Notes: generated by a model from the letters alone, not told the origin. 64,000 nucleotides of DNA from an uncultured Gammaproteobacteria bacterium (GCA_964503265.1 CAZCYO010000004.1:3191-67190); one strand, 5' to 3'; positions 476 to 63,071 are shown, counted from the first letter of the stretch. Numbers and translations: made by a program.

Positions 476-1687
476 TTATCCCCTTTTTAGTGCCGCTTCA
501 CGATACGTATCTGCGCTTTGTTTTATTTCATCATAGGTCTTTCCCGTTAACTCAAACTGTGCAATAACTGTTCCAAAATCACTCATATTTCTAATCTGCG
601 TATGTTCTGGACGTTTTATTGATAATTTACTTGGGCTTGTCGCCTGGTAATTAAAGATATCGCTACTATTTCCCTCGTACTGAGTAACGACATTAAATTG
701 TCCGCCAAATCCATCTGAAAGACCGACTTGTTTTGGCAGTATCCCTAAGCATAATTCAATTCCAGCTCTCGTGACGTCATAGTCAAATATATCTTTATAT
801 AAATATTCGAAACATGACGCAGCACGACAATTTACTTCGATAAGGGTATATCCGTCGTCCATCATCCAATACTCACTATTAAAAAAACAGTTATTTATAC
901 CAAGTGCTAACACGTCTCTCTTCGCTTGTTCTTTGAGATATGATGTTTTTTCATCACCTAGGCGTGTCGGCATGGAAAAGTTATCAATTAAGCGTGAGTT
1001 TGGATAAAAATTAGTGTCAGTGATAACAGTAAAACTCACCTCACCATTATGAACAAATCCTTCTATCGTAAGTTGTGGTGCATCGATATATTTTTCAATA
1101 ACCATAACATTCTGGAACGCTTCATGGTGCATATTTTCTGGCAAATATCTTGACATAAATGTATTAATTGCCATATTCATTTGAGGTAGTTCTTTTTTAA
1201 TCATAGGAAGAACGTTAATTAAATCTTTTTCACTGTGAATACCATATCCTAGTACTCCTGCGGCAGAATATGGAGCTTTTATATAAAATGGGTATTCTTT
1301 TCGTGATGGAACATCCTGTTCGATATGAAAGAGAGAATATCCTTCAGGGGCTGGTAGAAATTTTCGAGTGTAATATTTATGAAAACAGTGAAACGCTGCG
1401 ATAACACTTGGACCTGGAAAACCAAATTCTTCACATAAAACAGCACCAACCAGTGAACCTAAGTCGGTCGTAAAATAAACGCCATCAATGGCGTGTTCTT
1501 TGATGTAGACTCGTGCTTTTTCAGTATACGCTTCAATATCAAAATCAATTCTATTCGTTCTAGTATTAAAACTGTCTTTTGAAATACCAAAAAAATGAAT
1601 AGTTATATCAGGATAAGACTCTCGTATGACAAACTCAGATTCGTCATTATTACGCTGACTTCCAACATAAAGAATGTGTTTTCCCAT
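476..1687 (-). CDS. ATP-grasp domain protein (putative carboxylate-amine ligase)
   Basis: 403 aa. It has a pre-ATP-grasp N-terminus (MGKHILYVGS...) and a central/C-terminal region with ATP-grasp-like strands (YIDAPQLTIEGFV..., LIEVNCR). The exact substrate is unknown. Confidence 0.5.
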   Translation of the reverse strand: MGKHILYVGSQRNNDESEFVIRESYPDITIHFFGISKDSFNTRTNRIDFDIEAYTEKARVYIKEHAIDGVYFTTDLGSLVGAVLCEEFGFPGPSVIAAFHCFHKYYTRKFLPAPEGYSLFHIEQDVPSRKEYPFYIKAPYSAAGVLGYGIHSEKDLINVLPMIKKELPQMNMAINTFMSRYLPENMHHEAFQNVMVIEKYIDAPQLTIEGFVHNGEVSFTVITDTNFYPNSRLIDNFSMPTRLGDEKTSYLKEQAKRDVLALGINNCFFNSEYWMMDDGYTLIEVNCRAASCFEYLYKDIFDYDVTRAGIELCLGILPKQVGLSDGFGGQFNVVTQYEGNSSDIFNYQATSPSKLSIKRPEHTQIRNMSDFGTVIAQFELTGKTYDEIKQSADTYREAALKRG

Positions 1688-11705: not shown

Positions 11706-12119
11706 CTACATTATATACGAGGTGTCAAGGGGTGAAGTTTTTTCGAAAAATTCTTGTAGTTTTTTTTCATGCCCGAATGCAAGTGATAATTCTCTTATAT
11801 CAGTGTTTGAGAAATAACTTACTGCGAGGTTTTCCTCTTCTGATAACGCAATTTCTCCATCAATTTTCCCTACAAAATAATACACATGCCACTGAGCACC
11901 AAATTCGTCAGTATCTATTTCTTCATTATACTTAATAGGCGTAAACATTACGCCAATTTCCTCATATACTTCTCGCGTTATACATTCTTCAGGTGTTTCA
12001 CCTATTTCTATTTTTCCACCAATAAGCGCCCACAAACCAGCACCATTCCCACGTGCTCTTTTTCCAAGTAAGACTTCATGATTTCCATTTATAATAATTG
12101 CTCTTGTTACTTTTTTCAT
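11706..12119 (-). CDS. NUDIX hydrolase
   Basis: Nudix box 'GGKIEIGETPEECITREVYEEIG' (GX5EX7REUXEEXGU). Confidence 0.85.
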   Translation of the reverse strand: MKKVTRAIIINGNHEVLLGKRARGNGAGLWALIGGKIEIGETPEECITREVYEEIGVMFTPIKYNEEIDTDEFGAQWHVYYFVGKIDGEIALSEEENLAVSYFSNTDIRELSLAFGHEKKLQEFFEKTSPLDTSYIM

Positions 12120-13261
12120 ACTAGTCCATATGCTCCATCTGTCTGGTGCAATACAATTCCCCGCATCTCAAGTAATGATAATATCACACTCACCTGAGAT
12201 GAACTAAGATGCGTTTTACGAACAATATCATCCATGCCAAGTGACTCATATAATAGTACATCTATAATTTTTTGCTCTTCTTTCGTCTCGCCAACAATAT
12301 TGCTCGTGATACTTTTGATACCCTTGATACCTAATTCTGTAAGAATATCCGCTCCACTAGTTACCATGATAGCGCCTGCTTTAATGAGTTCGTTTGGTCC
12401 ATGAGAAAGATGCGAAGTGATCGGTCCGGGAACAGCGAATATTTTTCGGTCATTTTCTATAGCATCTTTTGCAGTAATCAGAGCTCCACTGTCAGCAGCT
12501 CCTTCAGTGACGACAATTCCATGAGAAAGTCCGGCAATAATACGATTTCGAGATGGAAATGAACCTATTGAAGGCGGTTCATTCAGTGGATACTCAGAAA
12601 CGATAACTCCTTCATGTTCTAGAATACTATTATATATAGCTTGGTTCGTCGCAGGACTACAACAATCAACTCCGCATCCGAGTACTGCAATCGTCCTCCC
12701 TTGGTTATTAATCGTCGTTATATGCGCGACAGCATCAACTCCCATCGCCAGGCCTGAAACGATGACACAATTAGCTGCAACTAACTCATCTGTAATTTTC
12801 TCTGTTACCTGTTTTCCATAGGACGTGATTTTTCGTGTTCCGACAATACCTACATACTTATTGTCATTCTGGAGCGGAGCGATAGAATCCCACGTTGATG
12901 AGGTCCTATCAGTCGTTTCACTCTTTCCAGGATGACAGAGGAGATCTTTATTTCCTTTATAAAATAGAACGAAGGGTGGGTTTTTTATTTCTTTTAATAA
13001 CGCTGGATATTCATCTTCATTCGAAATGAGAAATGATACATTTGCTTTCTTTAGCCTCTCTCTATAATTAGTCAAAGAAAAAGACTTTCTAAACTCGTCA
13101 AATTTATGTGCAATTGCTGGACCAATCGTCGAGGTTACATCAGCAAGTGGTGCAGACCATGCTTCCTGGGCAGTCTGAAATCGAAGCAGTAACTGATTAA
13201 ACCGAGTCGGACCAATTCCAGGAAAAACAGAAAATCCGAGCCAAAACATTCGATCTTCCAT
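12116..13261 (-). CDS. dprA: DNA processing protein A (DprA/Smf)
   Basis: Rossmann-like DprA core 'IVGTRKITSYGKQVTEKITDELVAANCVIVSGLAMGVDAVAHITTI...IAVLGCGVD'. A 4-nt overlap with the downstream NUDIX gene suggests an operon. Confidence 0.85.
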   Translation of the reverse strand: MEDRMFWLGFSVFPGIGPTRFNQLLLRFQTAQEAWSAPLADVTSTIGPAIAHKFDEFRKSFSLTNYRERLKKANVSFLISNEDEYPALLKEIKNPPFVLFYKGNKDLLCHPGKSETTDRTSSTWDSIAPLQNDNKYVGIVGTRKITSYGKQVTEKITDELVAANCVIVSGLAMGVDAVAHITTINNQGRTIAVLGCGVDCCSPATNQAIYNSILEHEGVIVSEYPLNEPPSIGSFPSRNRIIAGLSHGIVVTEGAADSGALITAKDAIENDRKIFAVPGPITSHLSHGPNELIKAGAIMVTSGADILTELGIKGIKSITSNIVGETKEEQKIIDVLLYESLGMDDIVRKTHLSSSQVSVILSLLEMRGIVLHQTDGAYGLV

Positions 13262-16308: not shown

Positions 16309-16404
16309 GGGTATCAGCAGTTAGAAGATAGAAGTTAGAAGTTAGTAGCTGGGAGTTGGGATATTAGAATACCCTTCTAACTAGTAACTCCTATATCCTA
16401 ACTT
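16309..16404. promoter_or_regulatory. Intergenic inverted repeat built from AGAAGTTAG-type units (mreB-mreC spacer)
   Basis: Direct repeats agaagatag/aagttag/aagttag, then about 55 nt, then ctaacttctacttc (reverse complement). Related units (AGGAGTTAG / CTAACTCCTAA) recur at 21068-21124 and 21686-21756. Confidence 0.4.
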
Positions 16405-21067: not shown

Positions 21068-21108
21068 GAGTTTTTAGTTAGGAGTTAGAAAATAGAAAAT
21101 AGTATTCA

Positions 21109-21124: not shown

Positions 21125-21685
21125 ATGTTACACATAGTCCAAGCACCAGCATCAGTTCTGTCAAACCCAGCAAAAAAAATAAATAATATCGATGCGTCGA
21201 TCATTCGATTAATTCATGAGATGACTGAAACCCTTGAGAAAGCCACTGATCCTGAAGGAGTCGGACTTGCAGCTCCTCAAGTGGGTGAAGGTGTACAATT
21301 ATTTATTATCAAGCCGACACCAAAAGCGAAAGTTGATGTGTTTATTAACCCTGTGCTCACTATTCCAGATGATGCAAAAATGGCTGATTTAAAAGAAAAA
21401 TTAGAAAACGAAGATGACGATATCAAACTCGAAGGTTGTCTCTCACTAAAAGATGTTTGGGGAGTAGTTGAACGATACGATAAAGTCCATCTTTCCTATC
21501 TAGATGCACATGGAAAAATGCATGAAAAAACATTTGATGGTTTCTTCGCCACGATCGTACAGCACGAGTATGATCATATCCAAGGAATATTATTTCCAAA
21601 ACGAGTACTCGAACAGGATAGTAGACTCTATAAATCACGAAAAGATAAAAAGGGCGAAGTCGTATTTGACGAAATATCCTTATAG
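21125..21685 (+). CDS. def: Peptide deformylase
   Basis: All three PDF motifs are present: 'GVGLAAPQVG', 'EGCLS' and 'HEYDHIQG' (HExxH). An acidic insertion of about 20 aa precedes EGCLS. Confidence 0.95.
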   Translation: MLHIVQAPASVLSNPAKKINNIDASIIRLIHEMTETLEKATDPEGVGLAAPQVGEGVQLFIIKPTPKAKVDVFINPVLTIPDDAKMADLKEKLENEDDDIKLEGCLSLKDVWGVVERYDKVHLSYLDAHGKMHEKTFDGFFATIVQHEYDHIQGILFPKRVLEQDSRLYKSRKDKKGEVVFDEISL

Positions 21686-21756
21686 AAGATAGAAGTTGGA
21701 AGATAGCAAAAAATATTTTTTACTAAAACCTATCTTTTAACTCCTAACTAGTAATT

Positions 21757-42399: not shown

Positions 42400-42460
42400 T
42401 GTCATCCTGAACTTGATTCAGGATCCAGTCTAATAGTTTCCTGCCTTCGCAGGAATGACA
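42400..42460. repeat. Inverted pair of TGTCAT-headed hairpin repeats (BIME-like dimer)
   Basis: Forward copy TGTCATCC-tga-acttgat-tca-GGAT (42400-42424). Reverse copy ttcctgc-cttc-gcaggaa-tgaca (42438-42460). 13 nt separate them. Confidence 0.7.
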
Positions 42461-45864: not shown

Positions 45865-45889
45865 TGTCATCCTGAACTTGATTCAGGAT
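45865..45889 (+). repeat. TGTCAT-headed hairpin repeat, identical to the 42400 copy
   Basis: TGTCATCCTGAACTTGATTCAGGAT. It sits inside an intergenic motif that exists without it at 26128-26203. Confidence 0.7.
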
Positions 45890-45949
45890 CCATTCCTTAC
45901 CTGTGCTTTTGAATTTTAACTTTTCACATTTAAATTAAAAAATGAACAT

Positions 45950-50231: not shown

Positions 50232-50738
50232 TTGCCCGCTTCTTGCATAACTCTTACGAATGCATGTCATACTTATATTATGGATCAAGTAACTCAAACA
50301 GAAGAAGTAACGACAGTACACAAATCTCATCCGTCAGAGGTCGTTCATACTACGACTAAAATTGTTCCTCCGGTAGTACGGACTGAACATCCCCAGCAAG
50401 TCTATGATAAAAAGAAAGTTATTTTTAGAACTTACCAGGTAGTCTGGTATATTTTAGCCGTGATCGAAATCTTACTTGGCTTTAGGATGACACTTCAGGC
50501 ACTCGGAGCCAATCCGTATAGTGGATTTACTAGTCTTATTTATATTCTCAGTAATCCCTTTGCTCTTCCTTTCAAAGGCATTCTCCAAACCTATGTCTCA
50601 GGGAGTTCTGTATTTGAGTGGTCGACCATCGTCGCAGTTATCGTCTACGCCGTCATCGCCTTTGGCATCGTCCACCTACTCCAACTCGTTAAACCCGTCA
50701 CTCCAGATGAAGTAGTAGGATCCGTCGACAACCCCTAA
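50232..50738 (+). CDS. YggT family membrane protein (putative), possibly starting at the internal Met (MDQVTQ...)
   Basis: The C-terminal 100 aa have two TM helices with a YggT-like pattern (YILAVIEILLGFRMTLQALGANPYSGFTSLIYILSNPFALPF). Confidence 0.45.
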   Translation: MPASCITLTNACHTYIMDQVTQTEEVTTVHKSHPSEVVHTTTKIVPPVVRTEHPQQVYDKKKVIFRTYQVVWYILAVIEILLGFRMTLQALGANPYSGFTSLIYILSNPFALPFKGILQTYVSGSSVFEWSTIVAVIVYAVIAFGIVHLLQLVKPVTPDEVVGSVDNP

Positions 50739-50759: not shown

Positions 50760-51006
50760 CTTTTTCGCAGCTAAATCGTCCGCGTGAACTTTGCGTTAAA
50801 AAAATTGCTGTAATGAGCGTTAAAAAACAGAAAGGCGAAGCCCTATACAAGTAAAGCTGAGTCCGGTGTTTTAGCGAATGAAAGCAATTTTTTAGCAAAG
50901 TGGAACCTAGGACGAGAGCTTTGGTTCTTTGTCGGCACAAAGAACAGAGTAAAAGAATAATAATAGGAATTATCTAATAGATTCTCGATCAAGCCGAGAA
51001 TGACAA
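50760..51006 (+). repeat. Dispersed structured repeat, copy 1 (about 247 nt), ending in a reverse-orientation TGTCAT hairpin
   Basis: Homologous to 62630-62993. Shared 5' block gcagctaaatcgtccg(c/t)gtgaac..tgcgttaaaaaaat...gagcgttaaa, an internal hairpin gttctttg-tcggca-caaagaac, and a 3' hairpin attctcg-atcaagc-cgagaat-gaca. Confidence 0.75.
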
Positions 51007-51029
51007 AACATAATTACCAAACAAAAAAA

Positions 51030-51056
51030 CGCCCGGAACTTCCAGGCGTTTTTTAC
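51030..51056. terminator. Bidirectional rho-independent terminator
   Basis: aaacaaaaaaa, then acgcccgg-aact-tccaggcgt, then tttttt. It serves the minus-strand gene ending at 51077 and any plus-strand transcript. Confidence 0.55.
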
Positions 51057-51076: not shown

Positions 51077-51622
51077 TTACTGAGCAGGTGTAGGCGTCAC
51101 ACCCCACTTACCCATATGATTCCCCATTCTTCCTCTCATTCCCATACCAAACCCTGGCATGATAACTGAGGCATCAATTCCCTGTTCGCTCGCCCAAGCT
51201 TTCAGGTCTTTTTGTATATTCTCCATGTTCGTTCGTCGTTGTTCTGGCGTTTGGGTATCAGTTACTGGATACTTCGCGTGAAGTGCAGCTAGTTCTGCGA
51301 TAATCGCAGTTTCCTGTGCTGCAGTTATTTTCTTTTCACTAACGAGCTTATCGAGTCGTACTTTTTCACGATCTTCCATCATTTGCGTAGTCATCGTTGG
51401 ACGTGCTGACGCTTTATGATTTTCTCGATAGTCTTTCACTACTGATTGCACTTGATCATGATTAAGCCCGAATTTCTGTTCAATTGCTTGAATCATACCC
51501 TGGAAAAATCCTGAGTGAGTAGTCGACGTAGTTCCCTGTGCGAATGCTGATGGAACCATAACGATAGAACTCGTTAACACTGCGATAGTCATTACTCCCG
51601 TAGCAATTTTTTGTCTATTCAT
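51077..51622 (-). CDS. Secreted hypothetical protein
   Basis: Signal peptide MNRQKIATGVMTIAVLTSSIVMVPSAFA; 181 aa, helical; Gly/Met-rich C-terminus. Confidence 0.5.
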   Translation of the reverse strand: MNRQKIATGVMTIAVLTSSIVMVPSAFAQGTTSTTHSGFFQGMIQAIEQKFGLNHDQVQSVVKDYRENHKASARPTMTTQMMEDREKVRLDKLVSEKKITAAQETAIIAELAALHAKYPVTDTQTPEQRRTNMENIQKDLKAWASEQGIDASVIMPGFGMGMRGRMGNHMGKWGVTPTPAQ

Positions 51623-53697: not shown

Positions 53698-53872
53698 TGT
53701 CATCCGCCCAGCGGCGGAGCCAGAAAATACTGTCATTCCGGCTTGTCCGGAATCAAAGTAGAAGTGTCATTCCCTTGAAAAAGGGAATCTATTAGACACA
53801 TCCTTAATAAGGAATTATCCAATAGATCCTCGATCGAGCCGAGGATGACATGTACTTTGGGAGGGAATGACA
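53698..53872. repeat. Cluster of five TGTCAT-headed hairpin repeats (three forward, two reverse)
   Basis: Forward copies: 53698-53718 TGTCATCCGCC-cagc-GGCGGA; 53731-53753 TGTCATTCCGG-cttgt-CCGGAAT; 53765-53788 TGTCATTCCCTT-gaaa-AAGGGAAT. Reverse copies: 53826-53850 atcctcg-atcgagc-cgaggat-GACA, and a degenerate gggagggaATGACA at 53858-53872. Confidence 0.7.
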
Positions 53873-55147: not shown

Positions 55148-55241
55148 TGTCATCCTGAACTTGGATTCAGGATCCAGATAATTGTCATTCCTGCGAAGTC
55201 AGGAATCTATACAAAATGATTCCGGTCAAGCCGGAATGACA
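55148..55241. repeat. Cluster of three TGTCAT-headed hairpin repeats (two forward, one reverse)
   Basis: 55148-55173 TGTCATCCTGAA-cttgga-TTCAGGAT; 55183-55206 TGTCATTCCTG-cgaagt-CAGGAAT; 55219-55241 attccgg-tcaag-ccggaat-GACA. Confidence 0.7.
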
Positions 55242-55255
55242 GAACAAATAATACT

Positions 55256-56158
55256 ATGACTAACGAAAACAAACTATCAATCTCTATCTGTGTCCCAGCT
55301 TTTAATGAGGAAGCAAATATTCGAAATATTTTAGAAGGACTCTCCCATCAAAAACTTTTTCGCGTCCACATAAATAAAATTATTGTCGTATCTAGCGGTA
55401 GTACCGATAAGACTGCTGAAATCGTGGAGGAGTTTATGAAAACGAATCCTCGTCTATCGCTTATCAACGAAGAGAACCGAAATGGAAAAGCCGCCGCGAT
55501 AAATGAATTTTTATCAGTGGTCAGTGATCCAGTCGTCGTCATCCAAAGTAGCGACACGATACCAGTTGAAGATACGATAGAACTTTTATGTAGACCCTTT
55601 TTAGATGACGCGAACATCGGGATGACTGGTGGTGCCCCGATCCCACTGAATGACCCGAATACGTGTCTAGGATACATCGTACATTCATGGTGGTGGTTCC
55701 ACCGTAACATCCCACGATTTGGAGAGATAGTCGCATTCAGAAATAACATCGGGATGATCTCAGCGAAGACGGCGGTGGACGAAGCATATATCCAGGCGAA
55801 GATGATTCAGGGAGGATATAAAGTAGTTCACATCGACGAAGCGATCGTCCGAAATAAAGGAGCTGATAATTTAGGCGACCTCATTAAACAGCGCCGACGA
55901 ATTTTTAACGGCCACTCCCGTCTCTATCAATCAGAAAAAATAAAAATCGATAACATGACGAAATCCAGTCTCCATCTATTATTATTCAAATATAAAATGA
56001 AGAATTTAAAGGAAGCGACGTGGTTACTTTGTGGAATTGGAATAGAATTTTATGCTCGAATACTTGGGGCAATGGATATGTATCTCTCTAAAAAAAATCC
56101 AATCACCTGGGATATAGCAAAATCTACTAAAAAATTGAAGATGAAAGATGTATCATGA
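55256..56158 (+). CDS. Family-2 glycosyltransferase
   Basis: N-terminal 'ISICVPAFNEEANIRNILEGL' and a later 'VVIQSSDTIP' DxD-like region. GT-A fold. Confidence 0.75.
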   Translation: MTNENKLSISICVPAFNEEANIRNILEGLSHQKLFRVHINKIIVVSSGSTDKTAEIVEEFMKTNPRLSLINEENRNGKAAAINEFLSVVSDPVVVIQSSDTIPVEDTIELLCRPFLDDANIGMTGGAPIPLNDPNTCLGYIVHSWWWFHRNIPRFGEIVAFRNNIGMISAKTAVDEAYIQAKMIQGGYKVVHIDEAIVRNKGADNLGDLIKQRRRIFNGHSRLYQSEKIKIDNMTKSSLHLLLFKYKMKNLKEATWLLCGIGIEFYARILGAMDMYLSKKNPITWDIAKSTKKLKMKDVS

Positions 56159-57279
56159 TTGTCTATTTAAACTTTGCACCAATTGATTTTGTAGGAGGAG
56201 CTGAACTTTGGCTTCGAGGCATCTCAAAAGCCACAAGTAAACATGAAGAGACTTATGTTATTTCTGTTGCTTCCCAAATTGCAGATATCTATGGACAAAT
56301 TGTACTTAATAGAAAATTTAGTGAAAATAGAACACCCGAAAAAATGGATGAAGTGAAATTAATTAAACTAAATATTTTGAGTTTTATTCCCTTCAACAAA
56401 AAATTTTGGGAAGTCAGGAATATACTTAAGAAAGCACGTCTAATCTATATAAAACTTGAGCTTTTAGAATTACTAATCACAACTTATTTTATTGGGATAA
56501 GTTCACTCAATAAAGTTATCGGTGGTGTGCACTCACCTCTTCACTATACAACGAGTAAGTCTTTTTTTAGCAAACTACATAATCTCGTTTATTCTTCAGC
56601 TCTTTATGGATTTATTATTAGAAAACTAAATAAAGTACATGTGCTTAATAAAAAAGATTTATTGTATTTAATGAAGAAATATAATATTGAAAATATTATT
56701 CAAATGTACGATGGTGTCGATATGAAAAAAAATGAAAATTTAAAAACGAAAATAGATCATACTATTCTTAAAGTAATTATTGTCGGAGAATTATCATTAA
56801 GAAAAGGTACAGACATACTTATAAAAATAATTAAAAAATCTCCAAAGAACTTCTTCTTCACCATTATTGGTGATGGTCCTCTAAAAAAATCTGTTAAAAA
56901 GTTACCGAAAAAATATAACTATCATTATATTGGATATCTTCATGACAAAAAGAAATTAAATCAACTTTATAAAGAACATGATATATTATTATTCCCTTCT
57001 CGTGCAGAAACACAAGGACTCGTTATGCCCGAAGCGATGAATTTCGGACTTAAAATAGTGAACTCTGCAGAAGTTAATTTAGGAGCTCCTAAGTTTGCCG
57101 AGCTATCATCCAATACAGATGATCAAGAAGAGTATGTAAAATTACTAGATCAAGTATTTATAGAAAAAAAGTCACAACAGAAAATCAAAGAGAAAATTCA
57201 CGAGTATGCTTATAGAGAATTCTCTAACGATATCCTTCAGCCTAAATTTCTCTCTAAGATATTATCAATAAATAACTAA
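56155..57279 (+). CDS. GT-B fold glycosyltransferase (family 4/GT1-like)
   Basis: C-terminal 'LLFPSRAETQGLVMPEAMNFGLKIVNS' is the GT4 E-x7-E motif region. 4-nt overlap with the upstream gene. Confidence 0.75.
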   Translation: MIVYLNFAPIDFVGGAELWLRGISKATSKHEETYVISVASQIADIYGQIVLNRKFSENRTPEKMDEVKLIKLNILSFIPFNKKFWEVRNILKKARLIYIKLELLELLITTYFIGISSLNKVIGGVHSPLHYTTSKSFFSKLHNLVYSSALYGFIIRKLNKVHVLNKKDLLYLMKKYNIENIIQMYDGVDMKKNENLKTKIDHTILKVIIVGELSLRKGTDILIKIIKKSPKNFFFTIIGDGPLKKSVKKLPKKYNYHYIGYLHDKKKLNQLYKEHDILLFPSRAETQGLVMPEAMNFGLKIVNSAEVNLGAPKFAELSSNTDDQEEYVKLLDQVFIEKKSQQKIKEKIHEYAYREFSNDILQPKFLSKILSINN

Positions 57280-57280
57280 T

Positions 57281-58201
57281 ATGAAAAATAATATAGTTTC
57301 CGTTTCTGTAGTAATTGCTGCATATAATGCAGAAAAGAATATTAAGAGACTAACTGAATCAATCCTAACACAGAAACATAAATCTTATAAATTATCTGAA
57401 GTAATAGTTAACTCAGACAGAAGTACGGATAGTACCATCACGAAATTAAAAGAAATAAAGAATTCTAACCTCAAAATTTCTATTGCGAAAAAAAGATTGG
57501 GGTTTGCAGGAACACTGATAAAATTTATAAAATCAAATAATTCAGATATACTGATCCTCCTTAATGACGATGTAATCATTAAAGACAATTTGTTTTTAGA
57601 AAAAATTATTCAACCATTTATACACGAAAAAGATGTTGGACTCGTATGTGGCAATCCTACGGCAACTATAATTAAAAATTTCATATCAGAAGCTGTAAGG
57701 TCTGGATATTTAGCATACAAAAACATGGCAGATAATAATAACTCTGGAAATAATATTTTTACAGTTGATGGTAAGGCACTTTGTGTATCAAGAAAACTAG
57801 CAAAAACAATGACGTTTCCTGAAGAATATAGCATAATGGGAAATGTAGATAAATATATCTATTTTTTATGTATTAAAAATGGATTTAAATATCGGTACGT
57901 AAAAGAAGCCCAAATGCACTTTAAGATGCCAGATACAATGAAAGATTTTGTTAAATGGCAGACCAGAAATTATAAATCAAATAAGTATAAGGTAAAAGAA
58001 GCATGGGGCGATTTAGTGGAGAAAGAATATCAACATTCTAAAAACGATTTTAGAAACTATAAAATTATTGAATTTATAAAAAACCCTTTAGGAAGTTTAT
58101 TTATATTGATGCTTGGATTCTATTGCTCATATAAAGCAAAAATGGAACAAGATCAATTTGAAACTAAATGGGATTTAGTAGGAAGCACAAAAAATATATG
58201 A
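57281..58201 (+). CDS. Family-2 glycosyltransferase
   Basis: 'VSVVIAAYNAEKNIKRLTESIL' and 'ILLNDDVII' (DD motif). Confidence 0.75.
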   Translation: MKNNIVSVSVVIAAYNAEKNIKRLTESILTQKHKSYKLSEVIVNSDRSTDSTITKLKEIKNSNLKISIAKKRLGFAGTLIKFIKSNNSDILILLNDDVIIKDNLFLEKIIQPFIHEKDVGLVCGNPTATIIKNFISEAVRSGYLAYKNMADNNNSGNNIFTVDGKALCVSRKLAKTMTFPEEYSIMGNVDKYIYFLCIKNGFKYRYVKEAQMHFKMPDTMKDFVKWQTRNYKSNKYKVKEAWGDLVEKEYQHSKNDFRNYKIIEFIKNPLGSLFILMLGFYCSYKAKMEQDQFETKWDLVGSTKNI

Positions 58202-59788: not shown

Positions 59789-61348
59789 ATGAACAATGAA
59801 GAATCACCAGTTGCTGCTCCGAAATGGCATGAAAGAATTATCCTGGCCCTTCTTTTTTTGACCTCTACTGTCGCGATTTATTTTTCTTATACGACTGGTG
59901 TGTTACTCGCATATAACGATGCGACTGCGCATTTGAATACGGCTCGACGGATTATCGATAGTTTAACACCTGGAATCGTACAGATCGGGAGTGTGTGGCT
60001 TCCCCTTCTTCATTTACTTGAACTTCCTTTTGTCGCGAATTATACACTTTGGCAGACGGGGCTGGCTGGGTCGATCGTATCTGGAATTAGTTTTATCGTA
60101 GGGGGAATATTCTTATATAAACTCCTTTATTACGTGACGAAGAGTTTCTGGGCGGGGTTCTTCGGGGTGCTCGTATTCGCGACGAATGTGAATATGCTGT
60201 ATTTACAGTCAACACCGATGTTTGAGCCACTTCTTATCGCGACTGCGATGGGTGCTGTATATTATCTCGCTCGGTGGTCGATGGAAGATGATTATAAATA
60301 TCTGATTTTCGCCTCTATCTGCACCATGCTTGCCACACTGACCCGTTATGACGGCTGGGCACTCTTTCTCACTACTGGTGCATTTGTATTACTTCGCAGT
60401 ATTAAAATGCGAAAAAGCTGGGACGGACCACTCATTCTTTTCTTAACGATGGCGGGATTTGGGATTTTACTCTGGCTCCTTTATAACTGGCTCATTTTCG
60501 GTGATCCATTATTCTTTTCTCGTGGTGAATTTTCAGCAGCTGCACAGCAGGATGTGCTCTTCGCACATAACGCACTGCCGACGAAACATGATTTACCTCT
60601 CTCAATCGTTACGTATTCACTATCGACTCTTCTTAACATCGGCGCGATAACGACAGCGCTTGGTGTATGGGGACTCCTGTCATTTCTAAAAAATAACATT
60701 ACCTCTGCTAGAAAATATGTCCCACTGCTTCTTATCACTCCCTATGTCTTTAATATCGCGACGCTGTATCTGGGCCAATCTGTTATCTGGCTTCCGATGG
60801 TGCCGCCATTTTTTACGACCTACTTTAACGCTCGCTATGGTGTACTCATGTTACCAGCGATCGCATTTTTCTCGGGCTACCTCGCTTCTAGAAACCTCTT
60901 TTTTAAATTTGTCGTGATCGCAGCCACAGTCGCACAGGTCATCCTTTTTATGAACCCTGCCATTCTCCCACTCTTTGGTCGAGAGATTGGTGTGATCACA
61001 CTGCAGGATACTGTCTCGAGTGTAAATGCAGATACGAAAAATGCGAGTAGCTATCTTCATGATCACTATAATTCTGGACTAATTCTCGTTTCATCAGCCA
61101 GTAGTGATGCATTTATTTTCAGAGCTGGGATTCCACTGAAGCATTTTATTACTGAAGGATCAGGGCACTACTGGAAAGAGTCATTAGTTAGTCCAGCGAA
61201 GTATGCATCGTGGATCGTTTTCTTTAGAGATCATACAGATCGTGTCGGAAAAGAAATTTATCTATCATCAGAACTTACCAAAAATTTCACAGAAGTATAT
61301 CATGATAACACCTACCGAATATGGAAAAAAGACATATCAGAAAACTAA
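59789..61348 (+). CDS. GT-C-fold-like polytopic membrane glycosyltransferase, tandem paralog 2
   Basis: Same architecture; 'DATAHLNTARRIIDSLTPGIVQIGSVWLPLLHLL' aligns with paralog 1. Higher GC than paralog 1. Confidence 0.45.
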   Translation: MNNEESPVAAPKWHERIILALLFLTSTVAIYFSYTTGVLLAYNDATAHLNTARRIIDSLTPGIVQIGSVWLPLLHLLELPFVANYTLWQTGLAGSIVSGISFIVGGIFLYKLLYYVTKSFWAGFFGVLVFATNVNMLYLQSTPMFEPLLIATAMGAVYYLARWSMEDDYKYLIFASICTMLATLTRYDGWALFLTTGAFVLLRSIKMRKSWDGPLILFLTMAGFGILLWLLYNWLIFGDPLFFSRGEFSAAAQQDVLFAHNALPTKHDLPLSIVTYSLSTLLNIGAITTALGVWGLLSFLKNNITSARKYVPLLLITPYVFNIATLYLGQSVIWLPMVPPFFTTYFNARYGVLMLPAIAFFSGYLASRNLFFKFVVIAATVAQVILFMNPAILPLFGREIGVITLQDTVSSVNADTKNASSYLHDHYNSGLILVSSASSDAFIFRAGIPLKHFITEGSGHYWKESLVSPAKYASWIVFFRDHTDRVGKEIYLSSELTKNFTEVYHDNTYRIWKKDISEN

Positions 61349-62616
61349 GAAGATATAAGATCGCGATATACTCAGGAATACTTCTGATCCTTTTTTTTAT
61401 GATGGCAGGTAAAGTAATTCACCATACATTACCTATCCATATCAGTGCTGATAGCGATTCACTCCTGTGGAAATATCAGTGCATCGATACCATGAAAACC
61501 TCTCGTGATCGCGCGCGAAACTGGCAAGAGAGTAAAGACCTGCATAACTCTATCACGAAACAAGTCACGCTTATTAAAAGTCTCGGTGCGAACTGCATCG
61601 CGATCGATACTCCCTATGATGCTGAATTTAAGGAATATCTCACCGCATGGGTTAGTGCGTCACGAAAAGAACATCTGAAGATATGGTTCCGCGGAAATTT
61701 TTCAGGCTGGGAGGGATGGTTCGACTATCCACACACACTCACATCTGAAAAGTTATTACGAGATACTGCTATTTTTATCCAAGCGAATGCTGATCTTTTT
61801 GAAGATGGAGATATATTTACTCCAGCCCCCGAAGGAGAAAATGGTGGTGAATTTAATCAGGTTGAAATTGACGAATACCCTGCATTCCGATCATTTCTCT
61901 CAAATGAATATATTATCGCCAAACATTCATTTGAAAAAATTGGGAAAAAAGTCGAAGTGAACTGGTTATCTATGAATGGAGGATTAGCTCGTCGCATGCT
62001 GGATCAGGAAACTATTAACGCGACAGGAAATCTGGTTACGATCGACCACTACATAAAAACCGCACCAGAGATGAGTGATTACATTAATTATTTCTATACG
62101 AAGTTCGGCGCGAAAGTCGTTATCGGCGAATTCGGCGCCCCGATTCCAGATATTAACGGCTCTATGACAGAGGACGAACAGGCGAAATTTATCGATTCTC
62201 TTTTTTTTGAACTCTATAAACATCGCGATAAAGTTGAAGGAATTAATTACTGGGTGTTATACGATAGCTCAACTGCAATCATACATCCCGATGGATCACA
62301 TCTGAAAGCCGCAGCAGTCGTTAAAAAATATTTTATGCCCCTTCGCATCACAGGAATAATAAAAGACACATCCAACGAGCCGCTAGCTGATGCACAAGTA
62401 AAAGAGACAACCTATGGCCAAGTAACGAAAACCGACTCAAACGGAGAATTTTCATTTATCATCCCGCGAACAGATACGACACTTTCAATTCAAAAACCAG
62501 ACTACACGACATTCACGACACCAGTTCCCGCCACTCTCTCCACCCCCCTAACCCTCACCCTCCCCAAAACCAACCCCACCCTGTGGGATAACATTAAAAA
62601 TATCTTCAAAAGATAA
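61321..62616 (+). CDS. Membrane-anchored glycoside-hydrolase-like (TIM-barrel, GH5-like) protein with C-terminal CarbopepD_reg-like beta-sandwich
   Basis: N-terminal TM. 'VVIGEFGAPI' resembles the GH5 nucleophile strand. The C-terminal 'ITGIIKDTSNEPLADAQVKETTYGQVTKTDSNGEFSFIIP' resembles carboxypeptidase-regulatory/Cna-B domains. Confidence 0.4.
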   Translation: MEKRHIRKLRRYKIAIYSGILLILFFMMAGKVIHHTLPIHISADSDSLLWKYQCIDTMKTSRDRARNWQESKDLHNSITKQVTLIKSLGANCIAIDTPYDAEFKEYLTAWVSASRKEHLKIWFRGNFSGWEGWFDYPHTLTSEKLLRDTAIFIQANADLFEDGDIFTPAPEGENGGEFNQVEIDEYPAFRSFLSNEYIIAKHSFEKIGKKVEVNWLSMNGGLARRMLDQETINATGNLVTIDHYIKTAPEMSDYINYFYTKFGAKVVIGEFGAPIPDINGSMTEDEQAKFIDSLFFELYKHRDKVEGINYWVLYDSSTAIIHPDGSHLKAAAVVKKYFMPLRITGIIKDTSNEPLADAQVKETTYGQVTKTDSNGEFSFIIPRTDTTLSIQKPDYTTFTTPVPATLSTPLTLTLPKTNPTLWDNIKNIFKR

Positions 62617-62629
62617 GTATTTTCTTCTC

Positions 62630-62993
62630 CATAGTGATTTGCAGCTAAATCGTCCGTGTGAACAATGCGTTAAAAAAATCTTTTGGAGTGAGCGTTAAAC
62701 TGGAAGACTCCCTATTTTTTGTAATTGAAACAAAGAGCGTAAAGTTTTTGCGGAGTGAATGTTCAGGGGAAATCCGGCGAACTGCCGAAAGGGAGCGGAC
62801 GAGCGAAGCGACGGAGCTCGCTTGCGAATAAAGTGAGACAAGGGTGGAACGGACAATTCCCCGATAAATGAACGTAGCAAAAATAGCACGACTTTCACTT
62901 ACAAAAGAGTTTTGGTACTTTTTCGGCAAAAAGTACAGAATAAAAGCATAATAGAACTTATCTAATAGATCCTCAATCTAGTTGAGGATGACA
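62630..62993 (+). repeat. Dispersed structured repeat, copy 2 (about 364 nt, with a roughly 110-nt GC-richer insert)
   Basis: Homologous ends with copy 1. Internal hairpin gtactttt-tcggca-aaaagtac and 3' hairpin atcctcaa-tctag-ttgaggat-gaca; both show compensatory changes relative to copy 1. Confidence 0.75.
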
Positions 62994-63071
62994 AGAGAAT
63001 GTAGGTAAACAAAGTTACTACATCAATACATATAAAAATATCCCATTCAAATGAGAAAAAAATGTAAAACA

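Follow-up and report, generated by a model that had tools for sequence, protein, structure and literature searches.

Two intergenic segments of a 64,000-nt stretch of DNA (contig CAZCYO010000004.1 of assembly GCA_964503265.1, positions 3191 to 67190; hereafter the window) are homologous to each other and rich in potential hairpins, which raises the question of what kind of element they represent and on what level, RNA or DNA, it acts. The original prediction, made before any homologue outside the window was at hand, described a single dispersed unit of 250 to 365 nt, either a noncoding RNA (ncRNA) or a miniature inverted-repeat transposable element (MITE), ending in a hairpin that carries the motif TGTCAT. 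The analysis reported here gives a different partition: the element is a composite of a conserved structured core and an unrelated 3' hairpin repeat. We consider it fairly probable that the core represents a new small ncRNA family of Microgenomates-like Patescibacteria, acting in trans, with the hairpin repeat as a separate entity beside it. All positions refer to the whole window and are counted from its first letter.

Results

Two homologous segments in the window

Sensitive blastn of each copy against the window placed the homologous segments at 50764-51005 (copy 1) and 62638-62993 (copy 2), about 12 kb apart within one genome. They share a 5' block (62 nt, 85% identity, E = 3e-12) and a 3' part (111 nt, 76% identity, E = 7e-18), which confirms the homology originally proposed, while their middles are unalignable; a 23-nt 5' block occurs exactly twice in the window and in none of 100 shuffles. 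Since the flanks of the two copies are unrelated by the same blastn comparison, a larger recent segmental duplication, a possibility that the original prediction itself had raised, is ruled out.

The genomic setting is the one first described, with the same order at both full copies: a gene on the plus strand (yggT-like, 50280-50738, for copy 1; a 431-amino-acid [431-aa] CarboxypepD_reg protein, 61321-62616, for copy 2), then the copy, then a terminator hairpin just downstream, then a convergent gene (51077-51622 beyond copy 1). The T-run of the copy 2 terminator serves the minus-strand gene only; the terminator beyond copy 1, as read from the sequence, is flanked by both an A-run and a T-run and could act on either strand. 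Judged by homologues of the proteins encoded beside the copies, the organism belongs to Patescibacteria, near Levyibacteriota and Microgenomates, and the source strain itself is represented in metagenome contigs by only two short identical contigs. Contigs with DNA identical to the window are those of SRR12487046 and ERZ4216102.

A core conserved in other lineages

The core is present in four other contigs from metagenomes or metagenome-assembled genomes (L023 to L026). Two of these came from a metagenome scan that used the internal hairpin (H) and its flanks as the pattern, with the covarying stem positions set to N; the scan returned two contigs, L023 and L024, both with the entire core, and the positions left free in the hairpin proved complementary in each (C-G in L023, G-C in L024). 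Both contigs also carry GYGTTAAAAAAA, a second CGTYAAAAAAAC, two T-runs, GAGAGCTTTGG, the hairpin, and ACAGAA. The other two, L025 and L026, were found through homologues of the Rpf-like protein encoded next to the L023 element and from there through their contigs. The L023 element lies between the stop codon of a convergent Rpf-like transglycosylase gene and a divergent VanW gene, and the elements of L025 and L026 occupy the same syntenic position (three of the four contigs), with a single copy in each of these lineages. Further copies thus exist beyond the window, and the earlier proposal of a lineage-specific family is supported by them. The L024 element has a LysM/Rpf-type gene on one side and, on the other, a tRNA gene (950-1021, minus strand) that separates it from pyrG.

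Mean column identity across the four non-window cores is 82%, whereas the Rpf proteins adjoining the L025 and L026 elements are only 63 to 65% identical to that of L023. Conservation has sharp boundaries, beginning at the closing helix P0 and ending a few bases after H, so that the conserved unit reaches from 50776 to just past the internal hairpin (~50949). Neither the GCAGCTAAA start nor a TGTCAT hairpin is found beside the core in any of L023 to L026, and the single unit with the TGTCAT hairpin as its terminus is not supported by this comparison.

The element is not present at every syntenic locus. It is absent from the Rpf-VanW spacer of the P0282 lineage (L028 to L035), in which the genes keep their order around a 108-nt spacer (e.g., L028 3520-3627) and the VanW promoter TTGACA-17-TATAAT is retained; its presence or absence therefore differs between lineages. 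The closest relative for which a long contig is at hand (L008/L013) shares 86% identity in YggT and 65% in the 431-aa protein and has the same gene order, but both of its sites orthologous to the window copies lack the element: 86 nt beyond yggT lies a different gene than in the window, and beyond the 431-aa gene there is a 68-nt spacer holding a plain terminator. Two partial sequences were also seen. L008 9770-9965 (minus strand), upstream of yggT, is a degenerate, inverted 3' half of the element with H intact and a decayed SRM-like hairpin, and it also resembles the sequence 3' of copy 2 (62994-63060). Upstream of the full element in L026, 2900-2960 (minus strand) is a tandem remnant of the 5' end (TCGGCATTACTGCAC…) that keeps the ancestral P0 strand TCGGCA.

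Other scans added no copies. A genome-collection scan with 18 specified bases of the 5' block gave five matches, all by chance and with no flanking similarity; a first metagenome scan with a 20-base pattern of the 5' block gave none, and the start of that block later proved to be specific to the window lineage. Scans of viral contigs gave chance matches or none, and the phage and plasmid collections gave no match.

Structure of the core and its support

The fold of the core (Table 1) is a rod made of the 6-bp P0, a large asymmetric internal loop, and a long, irregular, A/U-rich hairpin comprising P1a (GUUAAAAA/UUUUUARC), P1b (4 to 5 bp), a purine-rich symmetric loop, and P2 (CGUUAAAAAACU/AGUUUUUAGYG). 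The purine-rich loop between P1b and P2 has UGAA on both strands and could form tandem G·A pairs. The helices are A/U-rich and include two GYGUUAAAAAAA repeats. Copy 1 alone has a 36-nt insertion in the P2 loop (50829-50864). On the 3' side of the rod follow a conserved unpaired GAGCUUUGG, the 9-bp hairpin H, and an A-rich tail; the first two bases (GA) of the conserved segment at 50914 close P0 and the remainder is unpaired, and its counterpart in copy 2 is AAGAGTTTTG. The internal hairpin of the original prediction, with its two compensated pairs between the copies, is therefore real, its stem being one pair longer than described.

Table 1. Features of the two copies and of the adjacent sequence (window coordinates)
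Feature	Position	Strand	Remarks
Copy 1 structured core, candidate ncRNA, full length	50774..50949	+	R1 model positions 1-176; 64.6 bits, E 4e-13
Leader GCAGCTAAA, upstream of the closing helix	50767..50775	+	Identical in both window copies; absent from L023-L026
P0 closing helix, 5' strand TCGTCC	50776..50781	+	Pairs with GGACGA, 50910-50915
P0 closing helix, 3' strand GGACGA	50910..50915	+	Partner of 50776-50781
P1 5' strand, GTTAAAAAAA and TTGCT	50795..50809	+	Pairs with 50883-50896
P1 3' strand, AGCAA and TTTTTTAGC	50883..50896	+	Pairs with 50795-50809
P2 hairpin, GCGTTAAAAAAC ... GGTGTTTTAGCG	50817..50876	+	Holds the U·G pair conserved in 5/5
Conserved segment GAGAGCTTTG	50914..50923	+	Identical in copy 1, L023, L024, and L025
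Hairpin H (internal hairpin), 9 bp, CGGC loop	50924..50945	+	GTTCTTTGT-CGGC-ACAAAGAAC
NTS/SRM-like hairpin beside copy 1, GTC ATTCTCGG cttga TCGAGAAT C	50980..51005	-	Adjacent module, outside the core
Terminator hairpin beyond copy 1, before the convergent gene 51077-51622	51024..51054	.	Scan scored the minus strand only
One arm of the 86-nt composite 53765-53850 (two facing NTS/SRM-like hairpins), the "third copy"	53810..53850	-	No ncRNA core
Copy 2, divergent expanded core paralogue	62650..62940	+	5' block and 3' part homologous to copy 1
Long imperfect hairpin, copy 2 only, 29-nt arms	62745..62883 (62745-62773, 62855-62883)	+	Within the middle expansion
Hairpin H of copy 2, 9 bp	62915..62936	+	GTACTTTTT-CGGC-AAAAAGTAC; two compensated pairs relative to copy 1
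NTS/SRM-like hairpin beside copy 2, GTC ATCCTCAA ctaga TTGAGGAT C	62968..62993	-	Read on the minus strand

To reduce circularity, a covariance model (R1) was built from L023 to L026 only, with no window sequence, and run against the window; it recovered copy 1 over all of its 176 positions with the score given in Table 1. Profile search with nhmmer also found copy 1 (E = 7.5e-30), copy 1 itself being one of the three sequences of that profile. Base pairs were counted on the model-based Infernal alignment of the five full sequences (copy 1 and L023 to L026), which took the place of a hand-made alignment and, before it, of a MAFFT alignment of copy 1, L023, and L024 that was wrong in the middle. 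On the Infernal alignment, 95.0% of the 202 pairing cells are paired and 8 of the 42 pairs have changed on both sides; none of 500 shuffles reached the observed value on any of five measures, and sliding the partners by 1 to 3 columns left 42 to 53% of the cells paired, with 1 to 4 double-changed pairs.

Three different helices contain compensatory changes, and several positions show three pair types. The strongest case is P0: its strands, ~130 to 170 nt apart, read TCGTCC/GGACGA in copy 1 and TCTGCA/TGCAGA, TCGGTA/TGCCGA, TCGGCA/TGCCGA, and TCAACA/TGTTGA in L023 to L026, so that all cells are paired (100%), three pairs have changed on both sides, and two pairs show three pair types each. Where the remnant in the same contig has TCGGCA, the working copy of L026 now reads TCAACA, with a matching change to TGTTGA in the opposite strand of the helix. 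The inner part of P1 covaries as well (TTGCT/AGCAA, TTTC/GAAA, TTTT/AAAA, and TCTTT/AAAGA). Within the stem of H, taken over copy 1, copy 2, L008, and L023 to L026, position 3 is T-A, A-T, or C-G and position 8 is G-C, T-A, or C-G, the L008 hairpin being a third stem variant (ATACTTTTT-CCGC-AAAAAGTAT); the loop sequence is not invariant, as L026 has ACTC. The covariation first noticed between two copies is thus both confirmed and extended by homologues from other genomes.

The structure favors the plus strand. RNAalifold, applied to copy 1, L023, and L024, reproduced it on the plus strand, at -29.5 kcal/mol versus -21.8 kcal/mol for the reverse complement; the five-sequence alignment holds 12 G·U cells versus 3 A·C cells, including the U·G pair conserved in all five sequences, and 95.0% of its cells are paired on the plus strand versus 90.6% on the reverse complement. 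The core is also noncoding, as originally claimed. The five homologues share no open reading frame, and such open frames as they have do not correspond to each other, the longest open stretch in L025 being 54 codons. A coding hypothesis was rejected on the grounds that the frame running open through L023, L024, and L026 is interrupted by stop codons in L025 and copy 1.

The comparison with Rfam that had been proposed assigned the core to no family. At the gathering score, only four tRNAs in the window pass any of the 4227 models of Rfam 15; with both copies and L023/L024 as queries and E values up to 10, there was no relevant match, the few low-scoring matches touching the core being at chance level. 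RNase P, signal recognition particle RNA, transfer-messenger RNA, retrons, group I and II introns, attC, parS, and dif were dropped as candidates since, judged from the sequence, their defining motifs or required neighbor genes are missing. Sigma-70-like matches common to both window copies lie in the H loop or in the arm of the SRM-like hairpin and the AT-rich spacer; such promoter predictions were not used, their number being near chance and counterparts being absent from L023 to L026.

Copy 2

Copy 2 keeps the 5' strand of P0, P1 (62672-62684 with 62741-62749), a possible 3' strand of P0, and H, and has ~110 extra bases. R1 recognizes its H region (62891-62940, 33.9 bits) and, weakly, P1 (62672-62749, 6.4 bits). 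P0 could form between 62650-62656 and 62796-62802, the fold constrained to it reaching -71.0 kcal/mol versus a minimum free energy of -74.5 kcal/mol (a cost of 3.5 kcal/mol). Copy 2 is either an expanded or a decaying paralogue. The 29-nt inverted repeat in its middle encloses ~80 nt of G+C-rich sequence and could be a small insertion into the RNA gene.

The TGTCAT hairpin is a separate dispersed repeat

Just beyond H, both window copies carry the 3' hairpin of the original prediction, located here at the positions given in Table 1 and at an equal distance from H in the two copies. Listing every TGTCAT in the window showed that this hairpin belongs to a family of its own, of the form tGTC-ATYC(stem)-loop-(stem)GRAT-C, which is intergenic and in which stem sequences vary while pairing is kept. 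TGTCATYC occurs 19 times, against 5.5 expected. Perfect hairpins, at least 10 in the window, are found at 42401, 45866, 51004, 53732, 53766, 53849, 55149, 55184, 55240, and 62992, besides imperfect ones, and all 10 perfect hairpins have GTC directly before the palindrome and C directly after it. The hairpins are oriented, clustered, and often face each other, forming ~86-nt composites with a small central hairpin; the third, 3'-module-only copy reported earlier is present and is one arm of such a composite. Clusters were noted at 42400-42460, 45865-45895, 53698-53872, and 55148-55241 of the window and at 12769-12862 and 14148-14320 of L008. In L008, the same intergenic positions carry the same kind of composite with different stem sequences. 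The TGTCAT hairpin is therefore an independent repeat and not a part of the core.

Its architecture recalls the NTS repeat of Neisseria, CGTCATTCCCGCGMAVGCGGGAATCYRG, which the GIY-YIG nuclease SsnA binds and cuts as single-stranded DNA (ssDNA), the three bases before the palindrome governing cleavage and the C after it governing binding; NTS-type repeats have been linked to transformation (PMC11893778). The published SRM pattern, HGTCWYN(0-2)YYVSBRHN(0-5)WNVSBRGN(0-2)RNCYNB (PMC11893778), has no match on either strand of the window. A motif expression for GIY-YIG open reading frames (ORFs) found none in the window, L008, L009, or L013, and Pfam found no GIY-YIG domain among the 20 window ORFs scanned. 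The window hairpins are therefore called NTS/SRM-like by architecture only.

One pair of these hairpins lies inside a gene. In dprA (ORF 12116-13261, minus strand), two facing TGTCAT-type hairpins stand in frame at 12862-12937 (76 nt); the insert adds ~26 residues, CHPGKSETTDRTSSTWDSIAPLQND (aa 109 to 134), and the Pfam DprA match is split into two stretches. DprA handles incoming ssDNA.

Two further features of the window lie apart from the element. Runs of TAGAAG/TAGAAGT-like units, at gene ends or in intergenic sequence, are found at 16322-16359, 21079-21102, and 21683-21706 (repeat family D4). The G+C content, ~0.40 on average over the window, falls to 0.29 in a pair of genes for 374-aa and 306-aa proteins (56155-58201), annotated in the locus tables of the relative L008 as a glycosyltransferase and a sugar epimerase/dehydratase, and rises to 0.52 around 34 to 36 kb; these swings may mark horizontally acquired segments.

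Discussion

The core is favored as an RNA gene over a mobile element or a neutral remnant because it shows a strand bias, has no reading frame common to its homologues, is sharply bounded, and is conserved above the level of the adjacent Rpf proteins. Under this reading, the core (~176 to 180 nt, plus strand) would be transcribed as an independent small RNA and would act in trans as a folded RNA, most likely as a protein-binding scaffold or a sequestering RNA, with the invariant GAGAGCUUUGG-plus-H block as its main interaction surface. The window genome would then carry two paralogues, a canonical one (copy 1) and one with an expanded middle (copy 2). In this genome, the RNA gene may have been moved or duplicated through recombination between TGTCAT-type repeats, as is suggested by the fact that both copies have the hairpin at an equal distance from H and that both lie at synteny breaks. 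It is a bolder and rather unlikely extension of this reading that the core is a housekeeping-type regulatory RNA of Microgenomates and related Patescibacteria, for example, a 6S-like RNA or a subunit of an unknown ribonucleoprotein, in which the UGAA/UGAA loop and the GAGAGCUUUGG-hairpin block would serve as protein-binding sites.

Several points weigh against the core being such an RNA gene: (i) there are only five full sequences and a divergent sixth, and because the structure comes from these same sequences and the alignment used for counting was in turn fitted to it, the counts of pairs are biased in its favor; (ii) single-sequence folding z-scores are weak on the plus strand (-0.8 for L023 and -1.4 for L024); (iii) no convincing shared promoter was found; (iv) H is followed by an A-rich stretch and not by a T-run, with no intrinsic terminator there, so that the 3' end would need processing or read-through to the next terminator (51024-51054 for copy 1); (v) as the element is missing from the L028 to L035 spacer and from the two sites of the nearest relative, it is dispensable at those loci; and (vi) function as a protein scaffold is a guess.

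The strongest of the other explanations, though we regard it as unlikely, is a nonautonomous mobile element, whether a MITE, an IS200/IS605-type element, or a relative of repetitive extragenic palindromic (REP) sequences and bacterial interspersed mosaic elements (BIMEs), in which the hairpins would be ssDNA structures recognized by a transposase and the TGTCAT hairpin would form one terminus. Two copies 12 kb apart in one genome, the absence of both from the orthologous sites of the nearest relative (where the downstream gene differs as well), the partial inverted 3' half upstream of yggT in that relative, the coming and going of the element in the Rpf-VanW spacer by lineage, and the equal spacing of the repeat-family hairpin from H in both window copies would all suit mobility. 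The anatomy of the ends does not: the GCAGCTAAA… and …GRATGACA ends do not form an inverted-repeat pair, the flanks show no visible duplication, with blastn similarity confined to the two shared blocks, and the homologues from other genomes have neither the nine bases of GCAGCTAAA nor the TGTCAT hairpin. An IS200/IS605 palindrome-associated transposable element (PATE) or a REP/BIME would have a counterpart of the 3' hairpin at its 5' end, which is lacking here, and neither a Y1 transposase nor a REP-associated tyrosine transposase (RAYT) was found among the neighbors; more broadly, no transposase, RAYT, or GIY-YIG gene was found nearby. The copies number two, both divergent, within the 64 kb and one, at a syntenic site, in each of three other lineages. 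The window copies are old (76 to 85% identity, unalignable middle), the core stays syntenic in three lineages between proteins only ~63 to 65% identical, and a covarying 6-bp helix whose strands lie ~130 to 170 nt apart is typical of RNA. The MITE alternative of the original prediction thus fits poorly, given the want of terminal inverted repeats, the age of the copies, their syntenic inheritance, and the compensatory changes in their stems. It is very improbable, and the least probable of the explanations considered, that the segments are functionless, decaying remnants of a duplicated intergenic sequence, with covariation arising from a small sample and a structure-fitted alignment; the sequences do number just five or six, the data that suggested the structure are also those that test it, and copy 2 is clearly disrupted or expanded, but against this stand a core with 82% mean column identity next to Rpf proteins at 63 to 65%, sharp boundaries of conservation, compensatory changes in three helices, and shuffle and slide controls that all stay below the observed values.

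To each of the two remaining explanations we give a small probability. If the reverse complement were the functional strand, the element would be a 3' untranslated region, a terminator, or a stability element of the convergent gene. An opposite-strand gene does end 8 to 130 nt beyond H in all five full-length copies and also adjoins the partial copy of L008, and in L024 and L026, H, read on the opposite strand, follows a U-rich stretch directly after the stop codon. However, both window copies have a canonical intrinsic terminator with a T-run between the convergent gene and the element, H has no T-run after it on the opposite strand, the products of the convergent genes (a 181-aa secreted protein, a 136-aa protein, and Rpf/LysM proteins) are not related to each other, the balance of G·U over A·C (12 to 3) favors the plus strand, and the U·G pair of all five sequences would become a conserved C·A mismatch. 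Alternatively, the core could be a 6S-type RNA, binding RNA polymerase by mimicking an open promoter, that has diverged beyond the reach of the Rfam model; this is the most specific of the candidate functions. Its size (176 to 180 nt), its rod shape with a long, irregular helix at the end, a large bubble with 14 nt in the 5' strand and ~45 nt in the 3' strand, the small conserved hairpin CCAUnnnAUGG in that bubble, one or two copies per genome with strong sequence conservation, and the fact that no 6S gene was detected elsewhere in the 64-kb window would be in keeping with this. On the other side, no 6S match appears even at E values up to 10, the rod is closed by a helix of just 6 bp and has an additional hairpin outside it on the 3' side, and some syntenic loci lack the element.

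Comparison with known systems

As a new RNA family, which is how we read the core, it most resembles the orphan structured ncRNA motifs (raiA and others of the Weinberg/Breaker type), being intergenic, within the range of 150 to 250 nt, folded into several covarying helices, restricted to a clade, and not tied to one neighbor gene. It differs from them in that it matches no Rfam 15 model, occurs in Patescibacteria, and has A/U-rich helices. With 6S RNA (ssrS), it shares the length, the rod shape, the large bubble with a small hairpin on the 3' side, and the occasional occurrence of two paralogues per genome, whereas it is set apart by closing with a helix of only 6 bp, by carrying an additional hairpin on the 3' side, and by showing no similarity to the Rfam 6S family. 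To our knowledge, the ncRNAs described from Patescibacteria (Candidate Phyla Radiation) include few besides rRNA, tRNA, and the universal RNAs, and our literature searches returned no description of the core RNA and no paper joining 6S RNA with that radiation. We propose the core as a candidate new family, while the 3' hairpin belongs to a different repeat family that is already partly described; an RNA of ~180 nt that evolves more slowly than its neighbor genes would offer a handle on RNA-based regulation in these reduced, largely uncultured bacteria.

The composite as a whole has a parallel in the Neisseria intergenic mosaic elements (NIMEs), which are repeat blocks bounded by dRS3. As there, a longer repeated block (here, the core) stands beside short intergenic hairpin repeats near gene ends and is present in one genome but absent from the orthologous site of a relative; the core differs in being structured itself, in existing without hairpin repeats elsewhere, and in having the hairpin repeat on one side only. 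The hairpins on their own are closest to the NTS/SRM and dRS3 repeats of Neisseria (PMC11893778), with GTC 5' of the palindrome, an ATYC start, a GRAT end followed by C, and a likewise oriented, intergenic, and clustered arrangement, often in facing pairs, although their stems are shorter, more A/T-rich, and variable in sequence. The insert in dprA recalls a further system: Rickettsia palindromic elements (RPEs) are short palindromic repeats inserted in frame into protein-coding genes. The dprA insert is likewise a short in-frame palindromic repeat adding ~26 residues, but it belongs to another sequence family and is a single case here. Hairpins with an NTS/Ssn-like architecture thus populate a Patescibacteria genome, one of them in frame in dprA, and the question of what such repeats do extends to a phylum that relies heavily on DNA uptake.

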